Below are positions 1 to 23,527 of a stretch of 64,000 bases of DNA, one piece after another. The translations under genes and the position numbers were made by a program. A model generated the notes under the pieces. That model was not told the origin of the DNA. It made no database searches and was given only the letters and a program-made list of their open reading frames with translations. Positions within the stretch are counted from its first letter, which is position 1, and every line of letters begins with the position of its first letter. Source of the stretch: a virus (Duplodnaviria; Caudoviricetes); IMG/VR virus record IMGVR_UViG_3300023235_001725; one strand, given 5' to 3'.

Positions 1-539
1 GCGTTATGAAAAACTGTCATCGAGAGTCCATTAAGTTTTTCAGTTACGAAAAAAGTTCGCCCCTTTAAAAGCTCTATCTCCGAATCTAAGTTTTGAATTC
101 TTTCCTCTTCTGTCTTTTTAATAAACGACGGAAAAACTCCAATTGCACTTTCCATCATTTCTTTTGGAATAGGTGGGTCGTACTTGATTATCTGTAACTG
201 CTCAGTTACATCTTCTCCAATTTTAAAATCTCCTGAAGAAAGAACTGACAAAGGAAGTATGAGGCCTTGTGATATTTGACCTCGAAGTTTCATTGTTCTT
301 AATCGGAACCCCGAAACTCCATATGGCAATTCTCTAAAACAAGATTTTCGAAGAAACTCAAATTCTTCTTTCACAGGCAATAAAGAATCTATCTCACAAT
401 AAACTACCATGTCGCCAACATTGAATTCTCCTTTTTTGACCACTGACCTCCAACCACCAACTTTTGCAAGTTCGATACGGTCAGCTTTTTTAATAGGATG
501 TAGTGATTCTATTCTCCGAATGGTTGCTAGTTTTCTCAT
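1..539 (-). CDS. ATP-dependent RNA ligase (DRB0094/Rnl2-like family), N-terminal part; runs off the window start
   Basis: Manual translation from ATG at 539 gives MRKLATIRRIESLHPIKKADRIELAKVGGWRSVVKKGEFNVGDMVVYCEIDSLLP...RLRTMKLRGQISQGLILPL, the typical N-terminus of this family. Missing from the ORF track because it has no stop in the window. Confidence 0.85.
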   Translation of the reverse strand, partial: MRKLATIRRIESLHPIKKADRIELAKVGGWRSVVKKGEFNVGDMVVYCEIDSLLPVKEEFEFLRKSCFRELPYGVSGFRLRTMKLRGQISQGLILPLSVLSSGDFKIGEDVTEQLQIIKYDPPIPKEMMESAIGVFPSFIKKTEEERIQNLDSEIELLKGRTFFVTEKLNGLSMTVFHN

Positions 540-582
540 GTAAGCAAATATACGCATTCAATTGGGTTTTGTTTCAAATAAG

Positions 583-666
583 CACGCCGAGCAGAAGTCG
601 AATCTGCACATCCCTTACGGGCAAGGGTTTTGGAGACCCTCTGTCTCACCAATGAATAGCCGACGT
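583..666 (-). tRNA. tRNA-Trp(CCA) with a long variable arm (atypical)
   Basis: Acceptor ACGTCGG/TCGGCGT, G73; anticodon arm AGGGT-CTCCAAA-ACCCT; V-arm CCC-GTAA-GGG; T arm GCAGA-TTCGACT-TCTGC; weak D stem. Confidence 0.75.
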
Positions 667-693
667 GTATTAATTCTAACGTTGTAATTTTAG

Positions 694-776
694 CGCTGGT
701 CGTAGGAGTCGAACCCACAAATCCCGAAGGCGACAGGGTTGGAATCTGTCTCTCTCACCTATGAAGTAGGACCAGC
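694..776 (-). tRNA. tRNA-Trp(CCA)-like with a long variable arm (atypical)
   Basis: Acceptor GCTGGTC/GACCAGC, G73; loop TTCCAAC on a stem with an A.C mismatch; V-arm CC-TTCG-GG; T arm GTGGG-TTCGACT-CCTAC. Confidence 0.65.
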
Positions 777-830
777 GTATCGTATCTGTTTGGTCAGGTT
801 AATCCTGACCTGGTCGATACAAACCATAAG

Positions 831-904
831 TGACCCCGCCGAGATTCGAACTCGGAACCCTCAGTTTAGAAAACTGATATTCTGTCCAATTGAATTACGG
901 AGCC
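831..904 (-). tRNA. tRNA-Arg(TCT)
   Basis: Canonical cloverleaf: GGCTCCG...TCAGT-TTTCTAA-ACTGA...CCGAG-TTCGAAT-CTCGG-CGGGGTC-A. Confidence 0.92.
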
Positions 905-906
905 AT

Positions 907-1731
907 TTAATTTCTTATATATGTGTTTACAAATCTTTTAACTCCCCCAGGCTTCATATTCAAAGCTTCGCAAGCTTGTTTCACCCAACCTCTTTTATTA
1001 AAATCAATATGAGACATGAGGTTTTTTCTTTTATTAACTTCTTCCTGTGAGAGCTTAAATTTGTTTTTAAACCCATCTTTCATCTTTCTACCTTTTACCC
1101 ACCCTTGACTAAAGAAATCTTCAATAGTCTGTTTGTTAACTTTTTTAGAATCAACTCCATTATTAATCCAGCAAGTATTAAATTGAGAATTAGATTTACC
1201 AATTCCTTTTCCTTTCTTTACTATTCTCAACTTTTTAATTGTCTCAGGTGTATGCTCTTTTCCTGACCAATCATAATGGTCTTGAATGTTTGGTATTCTT
1301 CCCTCTTTGTAGGCTTTTTTTAATCCTTTTAACCTAGCTTCCTCCCATTTCTTTTTAAACTTCGGGTTTTCATCTGCTTTTTTCTTAGCTGCTTTAGCAG
1401 CACAAATAGACCTATGCCTCTGATGCTCATCACTGATAAATCCCCCTCTGCCTCCTGGCATTAGATTCATACAGTCATTCTTAGCAATTTCCTCCAATGT
1501 CACGACCTCTTTTTCCTTATCAATCAACTCCTTTCGAGAATTGCAAAACTCAAGTATCTCTCTGGAGTGACATTCAGCTCCATGCTTATTGACAGAACGT
1601 CGAAGACGCTTACCTGAACCCAGGTATCCATCTTCAACTACATCGGTGGAATGCATCCCAATATAATATCTACCCGTTAGGGTATTAGTGGTTTTGTAGA
1701 TGTAATGAAACTTCTTTTCTTTTCTAGGCAT
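907..1731 (-). CDS. Free-standing GIY-YIG homing endonuclease with NUMOD3-like DNA-binding motif
   Basis: N-terminal YIYKTTNTLTGRYYIGMH and HTPETIKKLRIVKKGK; sits between tRNA genes like T4 SegB. Confidence 0.85.
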   Translation of the reverse strand: MPRKEKKFHYIYKTTNTLTGRYYIGMHSTDVVEDGYLGSGKRLRRSVNKHGAECHSREILEFCNSRKELIDKEKEVVTLEEIAKNDCMNLMPGGRGGFISDEHQRHRSICAAKAAKKKADENPKFKKKWEEARLKGLKKAYKEGRIPNIQDHYDWSGKEHTPETIKKLRIVKKGKGIGKSNSQFNTCWINNGVDSKKVNKQTIEDFFSQGWVKGRKMKDGFKNKFKLSQEEVNKRKNLMSHIDFNKRGWVKQACEALNMKPGGVKRFVNTYIRN

Positions 1732-1782
1732 GGTGTATTATTTCTAATACATAGCTTCAAAAAGTACAAAACCGCCCAGGGG

Positions 1783-1867
1783 TGGACGAAGTGGGGTTCG
1801 AACTCTCGCACCCCGAAGGGCCTACTGCCTTTCCAAGACAGCCTCTTTACCATTTGAGTATCTATCC
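1783..1867 (-). tRNA. tRNA-Ser(GGA), T-stem mismatches
   Basis: Anticodon arm CTGTC-TTGGAAA-GGCAG, long V-arm, TTCGAAC loop; T stem GAGAG/CCCAC has two mismatches. Confidence 0.75.
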
Positions 1868-1870
1868 ATA

Positions 1871-1960
1871 TGGAGGCGAAGATGGGGGTCGAACCCACGT
1901 AACATTTTACTGCCCTACCGCTTTAGCAAAGCGGCCTCTTTACCATTTGAGTACCTCGCC
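1871..1960 (-). tRNA. tRNA-Ser(GCT)
   Basis: GGCGAGG...CCGCT-TTGCTAA-AGCGG, long V-arm, GTGGG-TTCGACC-CCCAT, encoded CCA. Confidence 0.9.
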
Positions 1961-1996
1961 ATATGGCTCTAGTTTGAGTCGAGAGTCACGACTTTG

Positions 1997-2084
1997 AGGA
2001 AGCGAAGGGAATCCAACCCTCGTCACAATTAAGTGAGCCAGTTTTCAAGACTGGTGCGACAATGACAACATTCGCGTCACTTCC
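1997..2084 (-). tRNA. tRNA-Ser(TGA), non-canonical D and T loops
   Basis: GGAAGTG...CCAGT-CTTGAAA-ACTGG, long V-arm; T loop TTGGATT; D loop lacks GG. Confidence 0.7.
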
Positions 2085-2116
2085 ATAAAAACCCAACATG
2101 TCAAAGAACTGTATTG

Positions 2117-2202
2117 AGGAAGATAGAGGGTTCGAACCCCTGCCGAGCAAACGACACCCAGGGGTTCAAGCCCTGTTCCACACCACTTGCGAGGTACCTT
2201 CC
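2117..2202 (-). tRNA. tRNA-Ser(TGA)
   Basis: GGAAGGT...CAGGG-CTTGAAC-CCCTG, long V-arm, AGGGG-TTCGAAC-CCTCT. Confidence 0.85.
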
Positions 2203-2217
2203 TTATTTTTTGGACAC

Positions 2218-2249
2218 AAAAAAAGCCCTAAGATTTCTCCTAGGGCTTT
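2218..2249 (-). terminator. Intrinsic terminator of the tRNA-operon attenuator (3:4 hairpin)
   Basis: Minus strand AAAGCCCTAGG-AGAAAT-CTTAGGGC-TTTTTTT: 8-bp GC-rich stem followed by U7, 15 nt upstream of the first tRNA. Confidence 0.88.
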
Positions 2250-2274
2250 CCTTGATATCGTTTATGAATTCACA

Positions 2275-2358
2275 TTAACGCATAACTCGGTCAGGCCCTA
2301 GGTTTTTCCTAGAACTCCATCTTGATGACGACCAATTTATGTTTGGGAGTGTTTTCAT
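2275..2358 (-). CDS. 27-aa attenuator leader peptide MKTLPNINWSSSRWSSRKNLGPDRVMR
   Basis: Manual translation. Codons 9-17 are TGG TCG TCA TCA AGA TGG AGT TCT AGG. Contains the 1:2 hairpin (TCTAGG-AAAAA-CCTAGG) and segment CCTAGGGC, complementary to the terminator 5' arm. Confidence 0.85.
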   Translation of the reverse strand: MKTLPNINWSSSRWSSRKNLGPDRVMR

Positions 2359-2461
2359 TGTTTTTGTTCTTTACCTTCAAGTTTTATTTCTCAGGGACGA
2401 GAAGGAATTAGTTGTCAATATATAGTTGGGAAAAATATTTTCTCGTTCTATAATTGAGACG

Positions 2462-2469
2462 CAAAGATA
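2462..2469 (-). promoter_or_regulatory. Bacteroidota sigma-A -7 box (TATCTTTG) for the leader/tRNA operon
   Basis: Matches TAnnTTTG about 100 nt upstream of the leader ATG. Confidence 0.55.
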
Positions 2470-2560
2470 TACAATAAGTTGCATCTATTCCAAGTTTTTA
2501 TGTAAATATTTAAAAATTATTTTACAATTTACTGATTTTTAGTGTATTGTGAAATAGTAG

Positions 2561-4704
2561 TAAATTATTCCTTTACAGGATGAGGTGATAAACAGGGGTA
2601 TGATGTCAAACCAAGAAGTGCAAAATGTTGTGATTCCCTTACAGGATGAGATGATAAACAGGGGAGGGAGCAACTTCAAATACCTACAAGCTGTTGTGAT
2701 TCCCTTGCAGAATGAGATGATAAACAGGTCTAACGATGGAATAACCACCTTAGGCGAAGTTGTGATTCCCTTGCAGAATGAGATGATAAACAGGTTTAAA
2801 AGTTGAATGCGCCCCGTGCATCCCGTTGTGATTCCCTTGCAGAATGAGATGATAAACAGGTGAGCATTATTCTCTAAACAAAATTTATCTCGAATAAATT
2901 TCAGCCTATTTCAGATTAAACAACAACAATGGAAAATGAAATCGACCGTCTAAATTATCTTTTAACAGCTGTAAACACAGAGAACACATTGAAAGGGCTT
3001 GCACTTGCTGAAATCACCAAAATCTGCTGTCAAAAGTCAAAGAATTTCAGAGATATAAAGCAAATCGAAGACATCCTTCTTAAACTAAAAAATAATCAGC
3101 AGAAATTCCGTTTTAAACAGGAGATAAAATATTTCAAACAGATGGCAGGTAGTTGTGATTCCCTTGCAGAATGAGATGATAAACAGGCGGATTACGATTA
3201 GCCACAGCACCCAACAGTTGTGATTCCCTTGCAGAATGAGATGATAAACAGGCACAGCCAAATAAAGAATTACCAAGATGGTGTTGTGATTCCCTTGCAG
3301 AATGAGATGATAAACAGGTACCAAAACAGAAACATATTTGCTTGCCATGTTGTGATTCCCTTGCAGAATGAGATGATAAACAGGAGGGAATTGATACATC
3401 AGAAAGCCTTTATGTTGTGATTCCCTTGCAGAATGAGATGATAAACAGGGGCAATCGCCTTGAATAATTTTGCTGTTCAGTTGTGATTCCCTTGCAGAAT
3501 GAGATGATAAACAGGAGACTATAATGAATACCGATTTGAGGAAGAGTTGTGATTCCCTTGCAGAATGAGATGATAAACAAGGCAAAGGTCGGGAGCTTGC
3601 AAGCAGATATAGTTGTGATTCCCTTGCAGAATGAGATGATAAACAGGACAAAGGATAAGAAGGGCGTGTAGCTATTAGTTGTGATTCCCTTGCAGAATGA
3701 GATGATAAACAGGCAAAGCAACATCGAATGGAAGCAAGAGAGTAGTTGTGATTCCCTTGCAGAATGAGATGATAAACAGGTTCACCTTCGTTTCGAGGTG
3801 GTTTTTGTCTGTTGTGATTCCCTTGCAGAATGAGATGATAAACAGGGAAGCTTTTGGAACTAATTCCGCTAATCGAGTTGTGATTCCCTTGCAGAATGAG
3901 ATGATAAACAGGGGAATCGAATTCCTTTAGTACGTTCCTTTTGTTGTGATTCCCTTGCAGAATGAGATGATAAACAGGTAGATTAAATCTTAGTCTTCAA
4001 GACCAATCGTTGTGATTCCCTTGCAGAATGAGATGATAAACAGGGACGGTATGCATTCAAAATATCATTGCGCTGTTGTGATTCCCTTGCAGAATGAGAT
4101 GATAAACAGGTAGATTAAATCTTAGTCTTCAAGACCAATCGTTGTGATTCCCTTGCAGAATGAGATGATAAACAGGGACGGTATGCATTCAAAATATCAT
4201 TACGCTGTTGTGATTCCCTTGCAGAATGAGATGATAAACAGGCTACTTCAACTTGACCCAAAAAGACATACAGTTGTGATTCCCTTGCAGAATGAGATGA
4301 TAAACAGGTGCAGTCCAATTCATGATAAACGCATTAAAGTTGTGATTCCCTTGCAGAATGAGATGATAAACAGGTCAATTTCATGTTGGGTGCTGTGACT
4401 AAAGGTTGTGATTCCCTTGCAGAATGAGATGATAAACAGGTTTATTTAAACAATGCAAAAAACAAACCAAGTTGTGATTCCCTTGCAGAATGAGATGATA
4501 AACAGGTGGACCACTCAACCCAAATAACCCGCGCATGTTGTGATTCCCTTGCAGAATGAGATGATAAACAGGTGCACAAAGCTTTAATTATCAAAGGTTC
4601 ACGTTGTGATTCCCTTGCAGAATGAGATGATAAACAGGTGTTTGAAGTTGGCGAACTTGATTCTAAGAGTTGTGATTCCCTTGCAGAATGAGATGATAAA
4701 CAGG
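2561..4704 (-). CRISPR. CRISPR array: 29 repeats of 36 nt (plus strand GTTGTGATTCCCTTGCAGAATGAGATGATAAACAGG), 27 spacers of 29-31 nt and one 291-nt interruption
   Basis: Repeats counted by hand from 2561 (degenerate) to 4669-4704. Variants at 2627 and 3546. The leftmost repeat has lost only its minus-strand 3' end, which suggests minus-strand transcription co-directional with the cas genes. Confidence 0.98.
2929..3174 (+). CDS. 81-aa ORF inside the CRISPR array, antisense to it, ending at a TGA in repeat 6
   Basis: ORF track; A-rich start context (attaaacaacaacaATG); no family recognised. Confidence 0.4.
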   Translation: MENEIDRLNYLLTAVNTENTLKGLALAEITKICCQKSKNFRDIKQIEDILLKLKNNQQKFRFKQEIKYFKQMAGSCDSLAE

Positions 4705-4790
4705 GTACCTGTGGCTAATGCGCTAATAAACAAGCAACAACCACATGTACTGGATGGAAAAAAGACGTCAAAGAGCGCTTGCACAAGGAG

Positions 4791-5507
4791 TCAGATGTAG
4801 AGTTTTGAGTTTGTAATCTCCATAACCATTCCAAACCCTATTCCTGTAGATTGTCCCAAACCATAGTCGTGAATAGCTTGAGCAATCTTTTTGTTGCAAT
4901 GTACAACAACGCTGCATACATTTGCTTTGTTCACACTGGTTTTACTTGGGGCTCCAGAAGAACTCATCAAAATATCTCTAACCTTATTGTGGTTTGATTT
5001 CTGAACTTCAATTCTAAAGCCGTCAAATTTTAAAGTGTTGTCAATGTTTGACAAACGTCTTTTTGTTTGTTCAGACAACTCCTCTTCAAACCCATCATCA
5101 TTTAGGGTGTGAAATTCATAACGGCCTCCATTTTTTTTCTTTAGCAAAATGCCAGTTTCAGTGGTTTTAAAAACAGTAAAACCATCATACAAGTCTTCTT
5201 GGATGAACTCAATGCCCGTCAGTTTCATTCCAAATCCAAAATCTTTATTTGCTCCTGCTCCTGCGAGAAGTTTATTTAAAAAGCTCTCGTCTCCAGAGGA
5301 TATAAACAAACTGCCTCCATGAGCGTACTCAATGGATGTTCCGCCTTCTGTAATCGTTCCTCCAATCATCCTAGAGATAACATAGTTAGAAGGTTGATTG
5401 TGATAGAGATTATCTTTTCCTAAGCATTTATGAATGTAACTCACAACGTGCTTAAGGTTATTTGGAACCAACTCCTTTGCGGAGCTAAATTTTAACTGTA
5501 TTCTCAT
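4791..5507 (-). CDS. cas6: CRISPR-associated endoribonuclease Cas6
   Basis: C-terminal glycine-rich loop YGLGQSTGIGFG; adjacent to the array; ATGA-coupled to the upstream gene. Confidence 0.88.
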   Translation of the reverse strand: MRIQLKFSSAKELVPNNLKHVVSYIHKCLGKDNLYHNQPSNYVISRMIGGTITEGGTSIEYAHGGSLFISSGDESFLNKLLAGAGANKDFGFGMKLTGIEFIQEDLYDGFTVFKTTETGILLKKKNGGRYEFHTLNDDGFEEELSEQTKRRLSNIDNTLKFDGFRIEVQKSNHNKVRDILMSSSGAPSKTSVNKANVCSVVVHCNKKIAQAIHDYGLGQSTGIGFGMVMEITNSKLYI

Positions 5508-6385
5508 GACTCTATTGTAAGTTTAGTGGATATATCTCCTACTCTATCATAACCCTCAATGCTTAGCCTGTTTCCCGATACCACTCTTTCAATCCAAACC
5601 AAGCCTCCATCCAATATAGTTGCCACACCAGCTGAGTTTTCAAGGACTTCTTTGTCTTCTTCATCAAGCGGCACAATAAGGGTTCCGCTCAAGCGAATCG
5701 TTTTATCTATGCCATTGGGAACAACCAGCATAAGTCCTTTTGCGATAGAGTCCTTAGCCATCTCCATAGGGTCGTTTTTATCAGTAGGAGTCTTATTTCT
5801 CAGCCAGTTAACGACACCCGTTTTTCCAACTTTACGTTCTCTAAAATGAGAGAGCAAAGCTTGTTTAGAGGCTGAGTTTAAAGATTGCTTAAAAATATCA
5901 GGCACATCTTCTACTGGAACTTTTCTAATATTTGAGTGGCCCGTTGCCTCTATGAGCATTGTGATGAAATCACCATAATGCTCTTTTAGGTAGGCTTCAA
6001 TCAAATCCCAAGTGAGGTTTGTTATTTTGGCGTTTGAGTTCCAAAAAGCTTTCCTTGTGCGGCATATCTCTTTAATTTCTCGAACATCCCCTTTTTTAGT
6101 AACCCAAGTGGGCACTTCAATCTTTAGGAAGCTGTTTTTTGCCTTCTCAATCAATCTATCCTGCTTCTGATAGACACAGGCCCCAAAAAAAGGGACTGGT
6201 CTTTCATTAAAAAGCACGTGCAAGACATTTGAAATCTGATGATGTGTTAAGTAGGACTCAAATTGAGGGAGCCCCTTTCGAATCTCACCTGCGTCTTTAT
6301 TTCCAAGAAACAATTTATCTTTCGTGTCTTTATGGTTACGAAACAAAACTGCATCTTTAAACTTCAAAACCATAAATTCTTTCAT
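5504..6385 (-). CDS. cas5: Cas5-like subunit resembling Cas5fv (type I-F2)
   Basis: Lies between cas7 and cas6. C-terminal RLSGTLIVPL...ENSAGVATILDGGLVWI resembles the Cas5fv C-terminus as I recall it. At 293 aa it is large for a Cas5. Confidence 0.65.
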   Translation of the reverse strand: MKEFMVLKFKDAVLFRNHKDTKDKLFLGNKDAGEIRKGLPQFESYLTHHQISNVLHVLFNERPVPFFGACVYQKQDRLIEKAKNSFLKIEVPTWVTKKGDVREIKEICRTRKAFWNSNAKITNLTWDLIEAYLKEHYGDFITMLIEATGHSNIRKVPVEDVPDIFKQSLNSASKQALLSHFRERKVGKTGVVNWLRNKTPTDKNDPMEMAKDSIAKGLMLVVPNGIDKTIRLSGTLIVPLDEEDKEVLENSAGVATILDGGLVWIERVVSGNRLSIEGYDRVGDISTKLTIES

Positions 6386-7464
6386 GCTGGGGTGGTTTCG
6401 GTTTTCTTTACTTTCTCTGCTTTTTGCTTTGCGGCTTTGGCTTTCTTTTCCACGCTATTCTTTTTTAAAGTTGCTCGTTCTTCTTCCGCGTACTTCTTTA
6501 ATTCTTCATGAAGTTTTTTTGCATCTCCAGTAACATCTTCCGTATATGCTTCAAACACTTCATACTGCAGAGCTTGAATATTTTCTATTGAATTGATTTC
6601 GACCCAACCCTCTTCGCTGTTAAACCTGTCAATCAAAGGATTGGAAACCAGTTTCACCATCAGCTTCTCTTTGCGTGCATAAGCACTGCTTCGACTGATG
6701 TCCAACGTAAGAAGCTTTTCTAAAAATACAGAAACTAATAAACGAACCTGGTCATCTGTGAATTTGAATCCACGCTCAGCAATGTTTACAGAACTTCCTC
6801 TCATTTGGAAAAATCCAAGCTCATTATCAAATGAGCCAAAGTGAATGTCGGCGTACTTTTTGAATAAATCAAAATGGTCGGGATTAAAACCATAACGTCC
6901 CATGATTTCGTCACAAGAGTAAAACTGAAGCTCTTTCAGGTTTATAGCACCTTGAGATGAATACTTAATCTTCCCAATTGTTTCTTTTTTGTAGATAGAA
7001 TTATCACTTTTTTCTTCGTCTGCTTCATAGCTGATTTTCTCACCAGACTTTGAATGGAATTCGAGACGCGAAAGAGCATCGCACGTTTGTTCGGCAGCTA
7101 CTAGTGTAATGGCTCCTTTTCTTTTTAACGTATCGTTTTTAATGGCATGCAAGTGCCCATTAAGAATGCTTTCTGGATGGGCAAGGTTTGCATAAAGTAA
7201 ATCTTTATTGTGTGTAAGCTTTGGTGTTTGAGACACTTTATCATACATCGCATGCTTCATGCAGGTAGGCGAAATAACTAATTTGTAACGAGGCTCTTTT
7301 CCATCGTTGTAAATGTTTCTCTTTGCATACATTACGTTGCTATGGTATGATTTTAAGAAAGGGAATTTTTCTCCAATATGGAACCGTTGCTCATTGCTAT
7401 CGTAATTAACAACGCCATTGCCTTCAATTTCAATTTTAAAAAGAATTGACTTTACTTTGCTCAT
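6382..7464 (-). CDS. cas7: Cas7 backbone subunit resembling Cas7fv (type I-F2)
   Basis: KSILFKIEIEGNGVVNY, LVISPTCMKHAMY, SIYKKETIGKIKYSSQGAINLKELQF and FTDDQVRLLV...LDISRSSAY parallel Cas7fv blocks recalled from memory. Confidence 0.8.
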   Translation of the reverse strand: MSKVKSILFKIEIEGNGVVNYDSNEQRFHIGEKFPFLKSYHSNVMYAKRNIYNDGKEPRYKLVISPTCMKHAMYDKVSQTPKLTHNKDLLYANLAHPESILNGHLHAIKNDTLKRKGAITLVAAEQTCDALSRLEFHSKSGEKISYEADEEKSDNSIYKKETIGKIKYSSQGAINLKELQFYSCDEIMGRYGFNPDHFDLFKKYADIHFGSFDNELGFFQMRGSSVNIAERGFKFTDDQVRLLVSVFLEKLLTLDISRSSAYARKEKLMVKLVSNPLIDRFNSEEGWVEINSIENIQALQYEVFEAYTEDVTGDAKKLHEELKKYAEEERATLKKNSVEKKAKAAKQKAEKVKKTETTPA

Positions 7465-7506
7465 GGTAATCTGTTTAAAGGTTAATATGTAATTTCTATG
7501 AATTGT

Positions 7507-9834
7507 TTACTCGTAAATTGGCTGGTCAAACTCTTCCAGTAAAGTTTTTTTAATATATCCGTAAATGTCATGATATTCCATATCCATCCTCGGATACGGC
7601 ATTGATTTGTATTTCGCCATTATACGCAATAATTCAAGATTTGTGCTATGCTTTGGAACTTTTAAAAATCTAGTGTAATCAAAAGCGCAATCTGGCTCAT
7701 CGTTAAGATGTTTAATTATCTTAAATACTTTTGCTAGTGCGTTGGAGTCTTCATGGAAGTCTTCGGGTATAGAATCATAAATAGGAGTTGATTTAGGCTG
7801 TGTCCATTCTTTTTTTGCCCATTTTTTAGCAGTAAAAAAGATTTCATTTCCTTTGCTTCTATAGCTAGTTTCTTGTATTTTATGGACTTCCGAGTTTTCA
7901 CTTTTAATCGTTAACCTATTAGGATAAATTTTCTCATGTAAATCCATGCGGCTTTGTCGATATTTTGTGTTTAACCAGATTCTTCTTAAGGCTTCATTTT
8001 CTTTACAATGTTTATTATACAAAGAATATAGGTTATCTAAAGTTGTTTCCCCTTGACTTTGTGTTAGAAAATTAAACCATAAGTCAGACAGTTCTCGTGA
8101 GTACATTGTTTCGCGGGCTCTATTCTCACTTCGTCCAGAATTATCTGAAGGGATTCGATATGTTAGAATTTCAGACTGGTCATCATAATCTCCCCACCTG
8201 TCGACACGGCCTACTCTTTGAAGAGTAGCTTCTGGAGACAGGCAACTTTCAATCAAATGCCTAAAAGAAACATCTAAAGATGCCTGTGCTATTGGGCTCG
8301 CTATTACGTGTTCTTTTTCAATATTTCTGTCGGATTGCTTTCCATAGTTTTGAAGAATAACGCTTAATCGCGCTTGATTGTCGTCGTCCTCAAATTTTCC
8401 ATGAAACAAAATAGTATCTTCATTGTGTTTGTGCTTATTTCTTTGACACTCAACTATAGAATTAGAGATAAAAAGAACAGGGCTTTTTTTACTTTCAGAT
8501 ATTCTAGAACGCCCCTCTTTTGTAGTGAGTTTGTATGATTTATTGTGGACAGCAGGAGCATGTTCAAATTTTCCAGGCAAATGGGCTGTTGAGTTGTCAA
8601 ATGAATCCCAATAAACTGATAAATCAAGTGGGGTTGCGGACAGCAGTAAAGAGCGTCCGTTTGTCATCTGATGTCTTACCTTCATTAGATTTATAAAACC
8701 AGCCAGTAAAGCCCCGTCCGACACTAGCTCATGATACTCATCAAATACAACATCTGCATCGGATACCATTAATAAATCAATATCGTTACAATGCTCTTTT
8801 GTCGGACGTAAAAAGTTATCTACGTTGGTTACAATGATATCGCTTGAAAACTTTATTCCTAAATCTGAATTTGAGGCCTGTTGTTTTCCAGCGTAATATA
8901 ATTCTACTGAAGTTTCAATTCCTGCATTTTTAAGCTCTCTTAAGATGTTGTGGTACACTGATTGTGCCACAGCATTTCTTGGACACACCCAAATAAGCCG
9001 TTTATTGTTGACAGTGCTCCAAAGTAAACCTAGAAGTGTTTTTCCGTATCCAGCAGGGGCGTTGATTTGAACAGTCTTAAACGAGGTCGTCCTAGATGCT
9101 AAAGCAACTTGTTGTGTCCATCTTTTTTCATGTCCAGGATATGGGCATTTAGTAAAAGCGTAACGGTGTTGTTGAATCAGTCGTTCATTTATAGTTTTTT
9201 TAATTTCATCAACTGTAAAATCTCCTAATTCACTAACTAAGTGGTCAGCTCTTACCACGCACATGCGAATAATCGTGTTGTCAACGTTGAGGTCGCTCGT
9301 CTCGTTAAAATCTCTAATATAGTAATGAGGGCTTGATGTTTCAGCTATTCTTGGCCTATCAAGGACTTGGCCAGGAAATAATTCTTCGACGAATTCAATC
9401 ATTCTATCGATAGAATTATCTTTCTTCTTCCGAACCCACTCAAGAATAGACGCATCTGTGTGCTTGCCCATTACATTGTTAATGCCGTGATGCCAGTATA
9501 CTGCTTCAGCAACTTGTCTTAGCTCCTCTGAGTCAAAGCTGATGTACATTCTTACAAATGCCCATCCCACTTCATTGTGCGAAAAAATAATGTCTTTTTT
9601 CTTTGTTTTAGTGGATTTACCATTTAAAGAGTTTCGGAGTAAAGTTTGAAACTCGGTTTCGGCTTTTCCAATATCATGAAGAAGCGCCGCTTTGCGGATA
9701 ACTGATATAAAATGTTTTTTTTCTGTATCTGAGGTAACTATAACTGAGTCGGCAATATATTCCGCAACCTCAGCAACCTTTCGACTGTGCTCAATCAGGG
9801 TTTCGCCAGTACTTTTTGCTAATAACTCATCCAT
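7507..9834 (-). CDS. cas3: Cas3 HD nuclease-helicase, stand-alone (no Cas2 fusion)
   Basis: HD domain (LIEH, LHDIGK, WHHG, ADH) plus SF2 motifs APAGYGKT, DEYH, SATP and QRVGRVDR. Confidence 0.93.
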   Translation of the reverse strand: MDELLAKSTGETLIEHSRKVAEVAEYIADSVIVTSDTEKKHFISVIRKAALLHDIGKAETEFQTLLRNSLNGKSTKTKKKDIIFSHNEVGWAFVRMYISFDSEELRQVAEAVYWHHGINNVMGKHTDASILEWVRKKKDNSIDRMIEFVEELFPGQVLDRPRIAETSSPHYYIRDFNETSDLNVDNTIIRMCVVRADHLVSELGDFTVDEIKKTINERLIQQHRYAFTKCPYPGHEKRWTQQVALASRTTSFKTVQINAPAGYGKTLLGLLWSTVNNKRLIWVCPRNAVAQSVYHNILRELKNAGIETSVELYYAGKQQASNSDLGIKFSSDIIVTNVDNFLRPTKEHCNDIDLLMVSDADVVFDEYHELVSDGALLAGFINLMKVRHQMTNGRSLLLSATPLDLSVYWDSFDNSTAHLPGKFEHAPAVHNKSYKLTTKEGRSRISESKKSPVLFISNSIVECQRNKHKHNEDTILFHGKFEDDDNQARLSVILQNYGKQSDRNIEKEHVIASPIAQASLDVSFRHLIESCLSPEATLQRVGRVDRWGDYDDQSEILTYRIPSDNSGRSENRARETMYSRELSDLWFNFLTQSQGETTLDNLYSLYNKHCKENEALRRIWLNTKYRQSRMDLHEKIYPNRLTIKSENSEVHKIQETSYRSKGNEIFFTAKKWAKKEWTQPKSTPIYDSIPEDFHEDSNALAKVFKIIKHLNDEPDCAFDYTRFLKVPKHSTNLELLRIMAKYKSMPYPRMDMEYHDIYGYIKKTLLEEFDQPIYE

Positions 9835-13252: not shown

Positions 13253-14869
13253 TTACTTAACTAAGAAACCAACTTCATAAGTCATCCATCTGAGTTTTTC
13301 TTCAAGGATTTTATAGGCTACCGTTAGTTTTTTAAATAAATCTGGCTTGTCTTTTTTCCAATGCTCCTTTAGTTGAGAATAACCCGCATCCCACCTGTCC
13401 AAATGGAGTTCTGGGTGAGCTTTGGCATAAACCATTCGTTCTGGGCCGCTCCAATATAGCATTTTATTAGCTATCTCCAACACATCTACTGCATCTTGAG
13501 ACATGTGTTTCACATTGCTCTGAATCATACTGTTCATTATCGTGGCTGACCTGTCTTGTTTATGTTCAATGTCTATTAGACATGGGTCGCCCCAGAAAAA
13601 GCTGTTTCTTACATCATATTCCTGCTTTTTAAAAACAATTCCGCCTATCGAACTTTGATGTGACGCTGAATGGAACAAAGAGTAAACTAAAGAGTCTGCA
13701 GCGTATTGATTCCATAGTTCAGCAGAGGTGTTTGGGGCCATGTATTCGTCTTTTTGGTTAATCCAGGTGGAATACGGTCCCACGTGAGTCTTTCGTGCCG
13801 CAAACAAGCTACAAACCTTCTTTAGATTATCTGGTATAATAGAGAACCCGTTTCCTTTTGACGCAGCCCAGCTATATAGCGCTACTTGTTGTGGGTTTTC
13901 ATAAATATTGTTTGATGCATTCAGAAAATATCCAATCGCTCCATCAACAAGGCTTCCTCGCATTGTTTTGCCTTCCACTTTCCATTTTAATGCACTTGTG
14001 AACTGAGGAATGTTTTTATTTGACCTTAATCCTTTTGTCTCTTCCCTTGCCCAGATAGATGCTGCTTCTCTTTGGTCTGTGTTGTATAATTCTTTACGTT
14101 TTGGAAGAACTCCTTTGATGCGAGGGTCTGCAATCACTTCATAACTCCAAGATGTTCGTTCATCTAATCCTGGGGTCATCAAAGTGAAGGTTATTCCCCA
14201 GTCTGACTTTACCTCCATGAATTCTGATGCTGGAAACAAAAAACCGTCTTGGACCCTAAAATTCTTAAACATCCTTTCTCTAAAAGTTTTAAAACTTGAC
14301 CCAGTTAAAAAAAGAGGTGGTGAAAACACGGCAATTACAACATTGGAAATACCATATGCTTCTTTTATCGCATTGATGCGATAAAGAAACTGAGCGTAGA
14401 GCTGTTGAGATGACTTTCCCCAACCGTTTTCTCGCATTTCATTATTAATCCAAGTCTTGGCTGTTCCTGATTTATGGCTTGAGGTTGCTCCTTTATTGTT
14501 AGCGGTTGCGTATGGAGGATTTATTAAAAAGACGATTGGTTTGTCATCTTTTATTGCTTGTTTTAAAGCTGGCGACTGAGTCGTTAGCTTTTCAGAGTCA
14601 TCATTAAGGAAGTCAAACTGAAAAGCTTGCTGATTTGAAACTGTTTCACACTTATCAATATCAGCTTTATGAAGAGTTGAACTATACAATTCTTTAAATT
14701 CATATCCTTGGGTAAGGTTCATAAAGCCCGAAGCACAGTCCCACACCACATACTCTTGTTTCCAGTTTTTTCCCAAGTTGTCCTGAATCAGCCTATGTGC
14801 TTCGTCCACCCATATTTGAGGTGTATAAAATTCGCCTTCTCTTTTCTTTTTATCCAATGTGATAGTCAT
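13253..14869 (-). CDS. Large N6-adenine DNA methyltransferase-like protein (MTase plus probable specificity region)
   Basis: GEFYTP, VVWDCASG and FLINPPYA motifs. Start moved to MTITL (14869) because the longer ORF reads through an attC-like site. Confidence 0.75.
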   Translation of the reverse strand: MTITLDKKKREGEFYTPQIWVDEAHRLIQDNLGKNWKQEYVVWDCASGFMNLTQGYEFKELYSSTLHKADIDKCETVSNQQAFQFDFLNDDSEKLTTQSPALKQAIKDDKPIVFLINPPYATANNKGATSSHKSGTAKTWINNEMRENGWGKSSQQLYAQFLYRINAIKEAYGISNVVIAVFSPPLFLTGSSFKTFRERMFKNFRVQDGFLFPASEFMEVKSDWGITFTLMTPGLDERTSWSYEVIADPRIKGVLPKRKELYNTDQREAASIWAREETKGLRSNKNIPQFTSALKWKVEGKTMRGSLVDGAIGYFLNASNNIYENPQQVALYSWAASKGNGFSIIPDNLKKVCSLFAARKTHVGPYSTWINQKDEYMAPNTSAELWNQYAADSLVYSLFHSASHQSSIGGIVFKKQEYDVRNSFFWGDPCLIDIEHKQDRSATIMNSMIQSNVKHMSQDAVDVLEIANKMLYWSGPERMVYAKAHPELHLDRWDAGYSQLKEHWKKDKPDLFKKLTVAYKILEEKLRWMTYEVGFLVK

Positions 14870-15069
14870 GCTTTTAATATGAGCATGAGCGTAAAAAAAA
14901 GAAAGGAACAAATAATAAAACGGTGCATACGCACAATGCTGATAGCAAACTTTATTATACACCTTGTTAGTTATACACAGTACGGTTATTTAAGGTAGAA
15001 TTTTGATACGAAGAAAGAATAAACTTTTTAAAAATGTGCGGTGAAAATTTTAATTCTGAATATTTATAT

Positions 15070-20451: not shown

Positions 20452-20523
20452 TCTACAAATGTAATCAATTTTACAAATATAAAAACTGTTCGAAGGGCGG
20501 CCTTTTTCTATCTGTAATTCAAG

Positions 20524-20595
20524 AGGGGCGTAGGGGGTTCGAACCCCTGACGTACAGGGTTAAAGCCTGATGTTCTACCTCTGAACTAACGCCCC
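20524..20595 (-). tRNA. tRNA with anticodon TTA (ochre-suppressor-like)
   Basis: GGGGCGT-TA-GTTC-AGAGGTA-GAAC-A-TCAGG-CTTTAAC-CCTGT-ACGTC-AGGGG-TTCGAAC-CCCCT-ACGCCCC-T; 7-nt loop with U33 and A37. Confidence 0.85.
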
Positions 20596-22634: not shown

Positions 22635-22686
22635 TGGCGTGGGGAGAAACGAATCTCACGCGAATCTTCTTTCAGATTCTCACGCC
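22635..22686 (-). ncRNA. Mini tRNA-mimic, family 1, copy a
   Basis: GGCGTG-A-GAATCT/AGATTC-GC-GTGAGA-TTCGTT-TCTCCC-CACGCC-A. Confidence 0.7.
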
Positions 22687-22746
22687 ATGTGGGGGAAGTT
22701 GTTTATGAGAACAGCGCCTCCCCAAGCATCTCACTGCTCATTATAA

Positions 22747-22913
22747 TGGTCCCGCGAGAGGGTTCTGCCCCCCATCATTTCTTCAACATCAACTACTAAC
22801 TCACTCTTGTGGCCACGCAAGTGAGTTTTTGTGTTTGCATCCCGAACTGAGTCCTTTCGGTTCGTCTTCCACATTATCAGTGTGGTGCTTTAACATATCT
22901 AAGCTATCGCAGG
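22747..22913 (-). tRNA. tRNA-Ile(GAT)-like with a ~90-nt insertion between the variable loop and T arm
   Basis: Acceptor CCTGCGA/TCGCGGG-ACCA; CCACA-CTGATAA-TGTGG; insert at about 22774-22863; non-canonical T loop GCAGAA. Confidence 0.6.
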
Positions 22914-22919
22914 AAATTG

Positions 22920-23062
22920 TCCTGGAGGAAGGGCTCGAACCCCCGACCCCCACCGTTCGATTCCAATTCTCTACTTCACAACCCTTGTGGCCACGCAGGT
23001 TGCGTTTCAATCCTTTTCCTCATTTATCAGGGTGGTGCTCTAACCAACTGAGCTACTCCAGG
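22920..23062 (-). tRNA. tRNA-Ile(GAT) with a 69-nt insertion in the anticodon loop
   Basis: CCTGGAG-TA-GCTC-AGTTGGTTA-GAGC-A-CCACC-CTGATAA-[22955-23023]-GGTGG-GGGTC-GGGGG-TTCGAGC-CCTTC-CTCCAGG-A. Confidence 0.8.
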
Positions 23063-23065
23063 AAG

Positions 23066-23111
23066 TGCCGCTAACAGGAATCTCACCTATTCTAGTGCTA
23101 ATGCAAGCGGC
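23066..23111 (-). ncRNA. Mini tRNA-mimic, family 2, copy a
   Basis: GCCGCT-TGCATTAGCACTAG-AATAGG-TGAGATT-CCTGTT-AGCGGC-A. Confidence 0.7.
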
Positions 23112-23112
23112 G

Positions 23113-23192
23113 TGGTGGTGAGGGAAGGACTTGAACCTTCGACCTCCAGGGTTTTAAAGCCTGGTGCTCTGAACCAACTGAGCTACCTCACC
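23113..23192 (-). tRNA. Short-V-loop tRNA with a 9-nt anticodon loop CTTTAAAAC (central TAA); encoded CCA
   Basis: GGTGAGG...CCAGG-CTTTAAAAC-CCTGG-AGGTC-GAAGG-TTCAAGT-CCTTC-CCTCACC-ACCA. Confidence 0.8.
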
Positions 23193-23195
23193 AAG

Positions 23196-23241
23196 AGGCC
23201 CCAGGAAGACTTTCTCTTCCTCTAGTGCTAATGCAGGGGCC
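23196..23241 (-). ncRNA. Mini tRNA-mimic, family 2, copy b
   Basis: GGCCCC-TGCATTAGCACTAG-AGGAAG-AGAAAGT-CTTCCT-GGGGCC-T. Confidence 0.7.
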
Positions 23242-23242
23242 G

Positions 23243-23296
23243 TGGTGGCGTGGGAAGAAACGAATCTCCCGCGAATCCCTAATGGACTCTCACGCC
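23243..23296 (-). ncRNA. Mini tRNA-mimic, family 1, copy b; encoded CCA
   Basis: GGCGTG-A-GAGTCC/GGATTC-GC-GGGAGA-TTCGTT-TCTTCC-CACGCC-ACCA. Confidence 0.72.
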
Positions 23297-23332
23297 TTTT
23301 TTAAATTCCAACACGTCAATGAACTTTTGTTG

Positions 23333-23406
23333 TGACAGGAGAAAGATTCGAACTCTCGTCCCCAGGTTTTTAAGGCCTGGTGCTCTAACCGCTGAGCTAT
23401 CCCGTC
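23333..23406 (-). tRNA. Short-V-loop tRNA with a 9-nt anticodon loop CCTTAAAAA (central TAA)
   Basis: GACGGGA...CCAGG-CCTTAAAAA-CCTGG-GGAC-GAGAG-TTCGAAT-CTTTC-TCCTGTC-A. Confidence 0.8.
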
Positions 23407-23455
23407 TGGTGGCGGATTCAGGACTTTAACCTGAACTGGTGCTTATGCATCCGCC
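23407..23455 (-). ncRNA. Mini tRNA-mimic, family 2, copy c; encoded CCA
   Basis: GGCGGA-TGCATAAGCACCAG-TTCAGG-TTAAAGT-CCTGAA-TCCGCC-ACCA. Confidence 0.72.
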
Positions 23456-23459
23456 GTAG

Positions 23460-23506
23460 TGGTGCGGGGACAATCGAATGTCCCATGAGCCAAAAGCTCT
23501 CGCACC
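23460..23506 (-). ncRNA. Mini tRNA-mimic, family 1, copy c
   Basis: GGTGCG-A-GAGC/GCTC-AT-GGGACA-TTCGAT-TGTCCC-CGCACC-A. Confidence 0.68.
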
Positions 23507-23527
23507 GTGATATGGAAACCTGCATCA

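Follow-up and report, generated by a model that had tools for sequence, protein, structure and literature searches.

A candidate leader-peptide attenuator ahead of a tRNA operon in an uncultured salt-lake phage

The stretch analysed here, referred to as the window, is 64,000 nucleotides (nt) of DNA from IMG/VR virus record IMGVR_UViG_3300023235_001725, an uncultured phage of the class Caudoviricetes that is present in at least 20 salt-lake metagenome runs. In this phage an operon of transfer RNA (tRNA) genes is preceded by a short open reading frame (ORF) and an intrinsic terminator, and it is rather probable that these two elements form a leader-peptide (ribosome-mediated) transcription attenuator that would gate the operon. 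An attenuator of this kind, with three helices (1:2, 2:3 and 3:4) and with sensor codons matching the gated tRNAs, had been proposed in a sequence-only reading of the same DNA. The proposal is supported in silico by the statistics of the codon run, the energies of the helices, folding under a ribosome mask, comparison with shuffled sequences, homologues and unrelated units. We infer that the ORF is translated, that the terminator functions in the host and that the switch runs in the direction set out below.

According to the proposed mechanism, transcription would start at the Bacteroidota-type promoter near 2462, or would read through from the upstream unit of cas genes and clustered regularly interspaced short palindromic repeats (CRISPR), and a ribosome would translate the 27-codon leader. 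When TGG, TCR, AGT, TCT and AGR codons are read fast, the ribosome would clear the run, helix 1:2 would re-form behind it, the 3:4 terminator would follow and RNA polymerase would stop at the end of a run of seven uridines (U7, at 2218). When any codon of the run is slow, its tRNA being scarce or uncharged, the stalled ribosome would hold segment 1, segment 2 (CCUAGGGC) would then pair with segment 3 (GCCCUAGG), no terminator would form and the polymerase would enter the tRNA genes. The outcome would be a feedback loop on the decoding capacity for exactly those isoacceptors that the operon supplies. That anticodon nucleases trigger the switch is speculation.

The leader region and the tRNA genes behind it

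The leader ORF (2275..2358 on the minus strand, as are all window features below unless stated otherwise) consists of 27 codons and a TAA stop, with the putative translation MKTLPNINWSSSRWSSRKNLGPDRVMR. It had been predicted to hold nine cognate codons, and the sequence confirms this: codons 9-17 (2308..2334) read TGG TCG TCA TCA AGA TGG AGT TCT AGG, and all nine consecutive codons are cognate to downstream anticodons under standard wobble rules. No other cognate run in any of the six frames of the window is as long, the runner-up having six codons. The cognate set makes up 10.7% of the codons in the long ORFs of the phage, and 0.0023 such runs are expected per window, with a far smaller figure within 300 nt of a tRNA array. 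The count of CCTAGG in the window is not unusual (6 against 6.1 expected).

The 20 nt upstream of the leader ORF are 65% A and contain no Shine-Dalgarno (SD) sequence, which is the context typical of this SD-less phage, where an SD-like 4-mer accompanies only 2 of the 38 long ORFs and the regions upstream of starts are A-rich (mean 43% A). About 104 nt upstream of the leader ATG, in the AT-rich spacer between the CRISPR array and the leader ORF, lies a promoter-like -7 box, TATCTTTG (2462..2469). The earlier assignment of a promoter box at 2462 agrees with the Bacteroidota -7 consensus TAnnTTTG, which is described together with SD-less initiation in PMC6847099. The box is the only one of its kind between the CRISPR array and the tRNAs, and the same motif is also found just upstream of several long ORFs in the window.

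Three mutually exclusive helices of similar energy can be drawn in the leader RNA (-20.6, -23.5 and -24.1 kcal/mol for 1:2, 2:3 and 3:4, respectively). Helix 1:2, the anti-antiterminator (2281..2341), joins the sensor run in its 5' strand (2341-2308) to a 3' strand (2302-2281) that includes CCUAGGGC. Helix 2:3, the antiterminator (2239..2302), pairs CCUAGGGC (2302-2295) with GCCCUAGG (2246-2239) and has further interior pairs. Helix 3:4 is the intrinsic terminator (2218..2253), with a stem of about 16 pairs, a folding energy of -20.8 to -24.1 kcal/mol and U7 at 2224-2218. The three segments named in the earlier reading, TCTAGG (2313-2308), CCTAGGGC (2302-2295) and GCCCTAGG (2246-2239), are all present at their positions. 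Their sizes had been underestimated: helix 1:2 is much larger (2341-2308 with 2302-2281) and the terminator stem has about 16 pairs instead of eight. The distance of 15 nt between U7 and the first tRNA (2202), also noted earlier, is confirmed. There is no promoter box between the terminator and the first tRNA, and because the terminator ends 15 nt away there is no space for a promoter.

The leader RNA folds much better than its shuffled versions (z about -7, reached by 0/200), and the duplex between the ORF region and the 5' arm of the terminator has an energy of -17.8 kcal/mol, compared with a shuffle mean of -8.9 (standard deviation 2.1), a value reached by 4 of 2000 shuffles. To represent a stalled ribosome, a footprint was moved along the run so that its A site occupied the nine codons in turn, and the RNA was folded as made before segment 4. 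With the mask on any of run codons 1-7, the minimum free energy structure includes seven or all eight of the eight pairs of helix 2:3.

Seven tRNA genes follow the terminator, only four of which are called by ARAGORN. The first two carry the anticodon UGA and are non-canonical: one (2118..2202) has a Ser-like GGAAG start, is missed by ARAGORN and matches the tRNA-Sec model with 28.7 bits, and the other (1998..2084) has a cloverleaf fold and a tRNA-Sec score of 35.0 bits, both below the cut-off. Next come tRNA-Ser (GCU) at 1871..1960, tRNA-Ser (GGA) at 1780..1868 and tRNA-Arg (UCU) at 830..904, all from tRNA searches. The last two carry the anticodon CCA, one (693..776) with a long variable arm and a tRNA-Sec-like match below the gathering score, the other (583..667) with 37.4 bits for tRNA-Sec, again below the cut-off, and with an acceptor/T arrangement that on reading of the sequence is 8/5, like that of bacterial tRNA-Sec. 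No tRNA types other than UGA, GCU, GGA, UCU and CCA were found in 583-2203, and in this respect the anticodon list given before (UGA twice, GCU, GGA, UCU, CCA twice) is exact. As for the amino acids assigned to these genes, Ser-GCU, Ser-GGA and Arg-UCU stand, and the labels Ser-UGA and Trp-CCA, each given to two genes, are unproven, as these four tRNAs are non-canonical and match only the tRNA-Sec family of Rfam, with 28.7-37.4 bits against a gathering score of 47.

Long variable arms and unusual D-arms mark the four non-canonical tRNAs. Compensatory changes between the two window copies and one copy in a related phage preserve the stems, and these tRNAs are therefore real, conserved RNAs, which would read UCR and UGG. 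The label "Trp" is not justified for the CCA pair because of the long variable arms and the tRNA-Sec-like fold, with only a sub-cut-off Rfam match; Trp, Ser or another amino acid are all candidates. If the attenuator operates as proposed, TGG in the window leader would also monitor these CCA tRNAs, whose amino acid may not be Trp. Allo-tRNAs and other non-canonical tRNAs came from tRNA-Sec searches, and an allo-tRNA has a 12-bp acceptor branch in an 8/4 or 9/3 arrangement (PMC5389517, PMC7609411). The four window tRNAs resemble them in that the variable arms are long, the D-arms are odd and the tRNA-Sec model is the best match, whereas their folds and alignments fit, on reading, an acceptor/T arrangement of 7/5 or 8/5. 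Two of them bear CCA, which is an unexpected anticodon on a tRNA with a long variable arm. As a separate observation, CCA tRNAs that combine a long variable arm with a tRNA-Sec-like fold and a conserved CAUUGGUGAG D-region are common to two different phages, with compensatory changes in the stems (window 583-776 and L176:3163-3246).

Related leaders and unrelated units in other viral contigs

Relatives were sought through the RNA ligase encoded after the tRNAs; the best matches from IMG/VR and JGI metagenomes have 58-61% identity, are not syntenic and lack this tRNA operon upstream of the ligase. An exact search for the sensor run in IMG/VR gave no match, and the INPHARED phages gave isolated tRNA and ligase matches only. 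Homologues were retrieved by means of a 20-nt stretch common to the two canonical tRNA-Ser genes, and three homologous units in all were available.

The contigs of G006-G009 (L166, L167, L168, L175 and L176) carry the leader MKTVITNRWSRWSSSSNRATERTLVCQNVM, with the run AGA TGG TCC AGA TGG AGT TCG AGT TCG (AAT) AGA, followed by a terminator ending in U8. Their operon starts with a non-canonical UGA tRNA, Ser-UGA, Ser-GCU, Cys-GCA, Ser-GCU, Ser-GGA and Arg-UCU, continues with an HNH-like ORF (a weak Pfam match, below the cut-off), a weak tRNA-like match (26.8 against 29 bits) and Arg-CCU, and ends with an ORF that has weak helix-turn-helix and HNH matches, a CCA tRNA like that of the window and a strong terminator. 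Four stretches of the DNA can be aligned with the window: the beginning of the ORF, the core AGATGGAGTTC, GTTATG close to the stop codon, and the part that runs from the U-tract into the first tRNA. Flanking codons of the leader are diverged, and within the run all substitutions and codon-sized indels stay in the cognate set. Since some of these indels look like slippage, the conservation of the run is only moderate evidence.

Covariation of leader codons with tRNA content in related phages, which had been named as a check of the attenuator, is seen in contig L174, where the run, the terminator and the antiterminator have all changed. The leader has a similar start (MKTPLNISN..., MKTPLNISNLNSSTSLCTSIRRYRS...), and its run has become S-T-S-L-C-T-S...R-R.R-S. 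The tRNAs of this contig are a non-canonical Ser-UGA, Thr-UGU, Cys-GCA, Arg-UCU, Leu-UAA and Leu-UAG, with Met-CAU, Ser-GCU and Arg-ACG later; no CCA tRNA was detected in the contig and no TGG codon is present in its leader. The terminator is unlike that of the window, and the ORF contains a new 8-bp antiterminator, GAUCAGGC:GCCUGAUC, which was reached by 0/2000 shuffles. A second unit in G008 has the same 5' element and an L/F/V-rich leader before Phe, Val and Leu tRNAs. The 5' motif common to the two G008 units was tried as a marker for further units and rejected: the search gave one new locus, an ordinary protein gene, and the motif is therefore a general promoter or 5' untranslated region element. 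A search with the post-terminator motif found no new homologues.

Two further units stand before different tRNAs, in phages with ligases that are only about 46-54% identical to that of the window. In L031, MITKLFQQPQPQPKHLRSEAC (QQPQPQP) precedes Pro-UGG and Gln-UUG tRNAs, and in L162, MKTLSLHRLSLCTHRSRSEGLKS (LHRL.LC.HR.R) precedes Cys, His, Leu-UAA and Arg-UCU tRNAs. In both the terminator ends 10-13 nt before the first tRNA and 22-24 nt separate the stop codon from the terminator arm (21 nt in the window), and only 6 and 78 of 2000 shuffles, respectively, reach the complementarity of their antiterminators. Taken over all six units, the antiterminator is stronger than expected from shuffles in five (4, 6, 78, 9 and 0 of 2000), and in those five it lies in the 3' part of the ORF. 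The spacing between stop codon and terminator is 21-24 nt, with 30 nt in one unit. Each of the six has an in-frame AUG, a stop codon whose distance to the terminator is nearly fixed, and the kind of initiation context that is usual in its own phage.

For a sample-wide test, the tRNA genes of the fetched loci were split into sub-clusters and the short ORFs within 300 nt upstream were scored for their best window of cognate codons; the controls were the same regions with disjoint codon sets from other clusters, and the reverse strand. Two of the 103 non-redundant upstream regions (the window excluded) score at least 5 and a third about 5.0, compared with a rate of 0.14% for mismatched sets, and no reverse-strand region reaches 5. 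The top three units include those of L031 and L162; in the remaining one, L080, the run consists of Gln codons only and stands before Thr and Gln tRNAs. Automated detection under-scores units in which ARAGORN misses the first tRNA or in which gaps exceed 115 nt. In a table of the six leaders against the six tRNA sets, the highest score of each leader falls on its own set; the window and G008a leaders, with almost identical sets, both score slightly higher on the smaller set of the window. Because some units were chosen for matching, this table is descriptive only. At two other places a strong terminator stands 15-23 nt upstream of tRNA genes and scoring gave no clearly codon-matched ORF, namely L161:1770-2100 (Lys-CUU/Phe) and the minus strand of L162 before Phe-GAA at 14864-14939 (Phe/Ile/Trp/Gln/Met).

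The sampled loci suggest that a codon-matched leader is a recurrent option and not a rule. There is perhaps an even chance that phages with Bacteroidota-type promoters carry a modular family of such attenuators, in which each leader spells out the codons that the tRNAs encoded behind it read, and slow decoding of those codons turns on the sub-operon concerned.

Competing explanations and known systems

Several observations weigh against the attenuator. Most sampled tRNA clusters have no such leader, and the TAnnTTTG motif shows no overall enrichment in the window, with 43 occurrences on the minus strand and 33 on the plus strand, which is about the expectation from base composition on a rough estimate. 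A ribosome mask on run codons 8-9 covers segment 2. The terminator is the first one after the cas/CRISPR unit, and its role may simply be to end the transcript of that unit. In the G008 homologue the antiterminator is not significant (631/2000 shuffles), and the W/S/R conservation in G008 could partly be due to shared ancestry and codon slippage rather than selection. The population is clonal, with no sequence variation in 1-2722 across four salt-lake runs, and there are therefore no natural compensatory changes to read. In addition, the operon is interrupted by a GIY-YIG (SegE-like) homing-endonuclease ORF (907..1731; PF19835, E 5.9e-6), just before which a terminator-like hairpin with a T-run (1789-1772) overlaps the 3' end of tRNA-Ser (GGA). 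ORF and hairpin lie between the leader with its four Ser-type tRNAs and the Arg and CCA tRNAs, and the terminator may therefore no longer gate the tRNAs sensed by TGG and AGR codons. The hairpin may be the end of the first part of the operon, and the leader probably matches the state of the operon prior to the endonuclease insertion.

On the one hand, some of these observations would fit a translation-dependent control of other logic, in which a ribosome close behind the polymerase carries it through the terminator, so that slow decoding lowers tRNA output, or in which there is a fixed, leaky read-through. The near-constant spacing between stop codon and terminator could matter for contact between ribosome and polymerase, a stall at run codons 8-9 masks segment 2, and helix 2:3 is not significant in the G008 homologue. 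On the other hand, the antiterminators of five of the six units exceed those of shuffles and are placed within the 3' part of the ORF, and a loop that cuts tRNA output during a shortage would not stabilise supply. We consider such control unlikely.

A little less likely again is that the leader encodes a small W/S/R-rich peptide, or is a small RNA of about 240 nt with its own terminator, that the tRNAs are made from an unrecognised promoter or by leaky read-through, and that the codons match by coincidence. Taken together, the promoter, the short ORF and the terminator are indeed a self-contained unit, and both the N-terminus MKT..N and the part AGATGGAGTTC of the run are conserved in homologues. 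However, the gap of 15 nt between U7 and the first tRNA holds no promoter box, the run of L174 changes to S/T/L/C/R along with its tRNA set, and the unrelated leaders of L031 and L162 match their own tRNAs, which therefore weakens the peptide explanation.

Chance, that is, an ordinary terminator of the cas/CRISPR transcript with a spurious ORF before the tRNA array, appears improbable. The CRISPR array is probably transcribed toward the terminator, on the same strand and with no other terminator between them, and rare coincidences are expected when many windows are examined. Nevertheless, the cognate run is far rarer than one per window, the antiterminator is matched by few shuffles, codon-matched units are enriched over mismatched controls, and homologous leaders occur in contigs without a CRISPR array directly upstream, by which both chance and a role for the CRISPR transcript are weakened. 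Finally, there is very little likelihood of an RNA-only switch resembling a T-box, in which anticodons read the codon run directly without translation: the run is by definition complementary to the anticodons and is one strand of a helix that competes with the antiterminator, but a permissive Rfam scan found neither a T-box nor another riboswitch, the AUG, the stop codon at a fixed terminator distance and the phage-typical initiation context recur in all six units, and known T-boxes use a single specifier codon and a contact with the acceptor end.

The leader-peptide attenuator has well-known counterparts, and leader-peptide attenuation is familiar for amino-acid biosynthesis and for a few synthetase operons. 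Like trpL, hisL, leuL, thrL, ilvL and pheL, the window has a short ORF with a sensor run, exclusive 1:2, 2:3 and 3:4 helices and a terminator with a U-tract; as in attenuators of the trpL type, the terminator helix is slightly more stable than the other two, and several codon types are sensed, as in thrL and ilvL. It differs from them in that tRNA genes would be controlled and not biosynthetic enzymes, with feedback at the isoacceptor level on the very molecules that read the sensor. It also differs in standing on a phage with Bacteroidota-type promoters and SD-less initiation, in having segment 2 upstream of the stop codon, and in lacking an Rfam match, since a permissive cmscan of 1-6000 (E up to 1) found neither the Trp, His, Leu, Thr and Phe leader families nor T-box.

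The pheM leader of Escherichia coli pheST, the operon for phenylalanyl-tRNA synthetase, is a leader-peptide attenuator of a decoding-machinery gene and thus resembles the present case in controlling no biosynthetic pathway. However, pheM is chromosomal and concerns one amino acid and a synthetase, whereas here the tRNAs themselves, with five anticodon species, would be controlled. T-box riboswitches similarly couple tRNA status to the choice between terminator and antiterminator ahead of translation-related genes, but they bind uncharged tRNA without translation, and their specifier loop and T-box motif are absent from the window leader, which has no Rfam match to them. Among phages, the tRNA clusters of T4 and T5, which come with RNA repair genes, offset codon bias or host tRNA cleavage, and the window is like them in that its tRNA array adjoins an RNA ligase and is broken by homing endonucleases. 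We know of no codon-matched leader with a terminator in clusters of the T4/T5 type, and the literature search found none.

In the textbook view, growth rate and the stringent response control tRNA genes through their promoters. The earlier statement that no phage tRNA operon was known to be under attenuator control holds as far as full-text literature searching goes: neither for phages nor for other systems did it turn up a paper on leader-peptide attenuation of tRNA genes, part of the searching having been aimed at allo-tRNAs and at the promoter consensus. If true, the attenuator would represent direct feedback on decoding capacity at the resolution of single isoacceptors, which is not known to have been described for any tRNA gene. 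It would also explain how tRNA-rich phages avoid making tRNAs that are not needed, and each leader would be a readable prediction of the codons that limit translation in infection. The element is short and modular and could serve as a sensor of tRNA availability.

Gene order and other features of the window

The window has a GC content of 38%. In minus-strand order, cas3, two ORFs without assignment and cas6 (9834..4791) come first, followed by the CRISPR array of 29 repeats (4716..2560), which are degenerate at the 2560 end, the AT-rich spacer, the leader and the tRNA genes. The RNA ligase gene (PF21189; ATG at 539) is last. It had been thought to be co-transcribed with the tRNAs, but it has its own promoter-like box, TATATTTG (545..552), 6 nt ahead of the ATG, and co-transcription is therefore not needed.

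ORFs of endonuclease type stand at differing places in the homologous operons: the GIY-YIG ORF at 907-1731 in the window, and others at L176:1907-2317 and 2636-3133 and at L167:12310-12460. Those of the relatives have weak HNH matches below Pfam cut-offs, and in L167 such an ORF has taken the place of most of the first non-canonical tRNA. In G008, a related phage, a match to an RNA like the hepatitis delta virus ribozyme (RF02682, 35.9 bits against a cut-off of 44) is located directly after tRNA-Leu, at L177:2591-2659.

The CRISPR-Cas unit (2560-9834) is a minimal type I system carried by the phage, with Cas3 (HD and helicase), two ORFs without a Pfam match, Cas6 and the 29-repeat array; no cas1 or cas2 was seen adjoining it in the window. 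At least five spacers (e.g. 3647-3677, 4374-4405 and 4573-4603) match other contigs of the same salt-lake metagenomes, and two of the matched contigs have a depth of about 700x in one run. Targeting of abundant co-resident elements by the phage CRISPR therefore seems likely from these matches.

The other tRNA genes of the window, at 20.5 kb and 23 kb, directly follow protein genes and have no leader. One of them, called by ARAGORN at 20523-20595, has the anticodon UUA and would decode the stop codon TAA. TAA is the commonest stop codon in the long ORFs of the window (28/45), and the ORFs look intact under code 11. The region 22640-23510 is dense in tRNA genes, including two for tRNA-Leu (UAA). 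At about 22760-23060 there are tRNA-like genes with long inserts in the anticodon loop, which are possibly introns, and the dense region also contains short tRNA-like hairpins with CCA-like tails.

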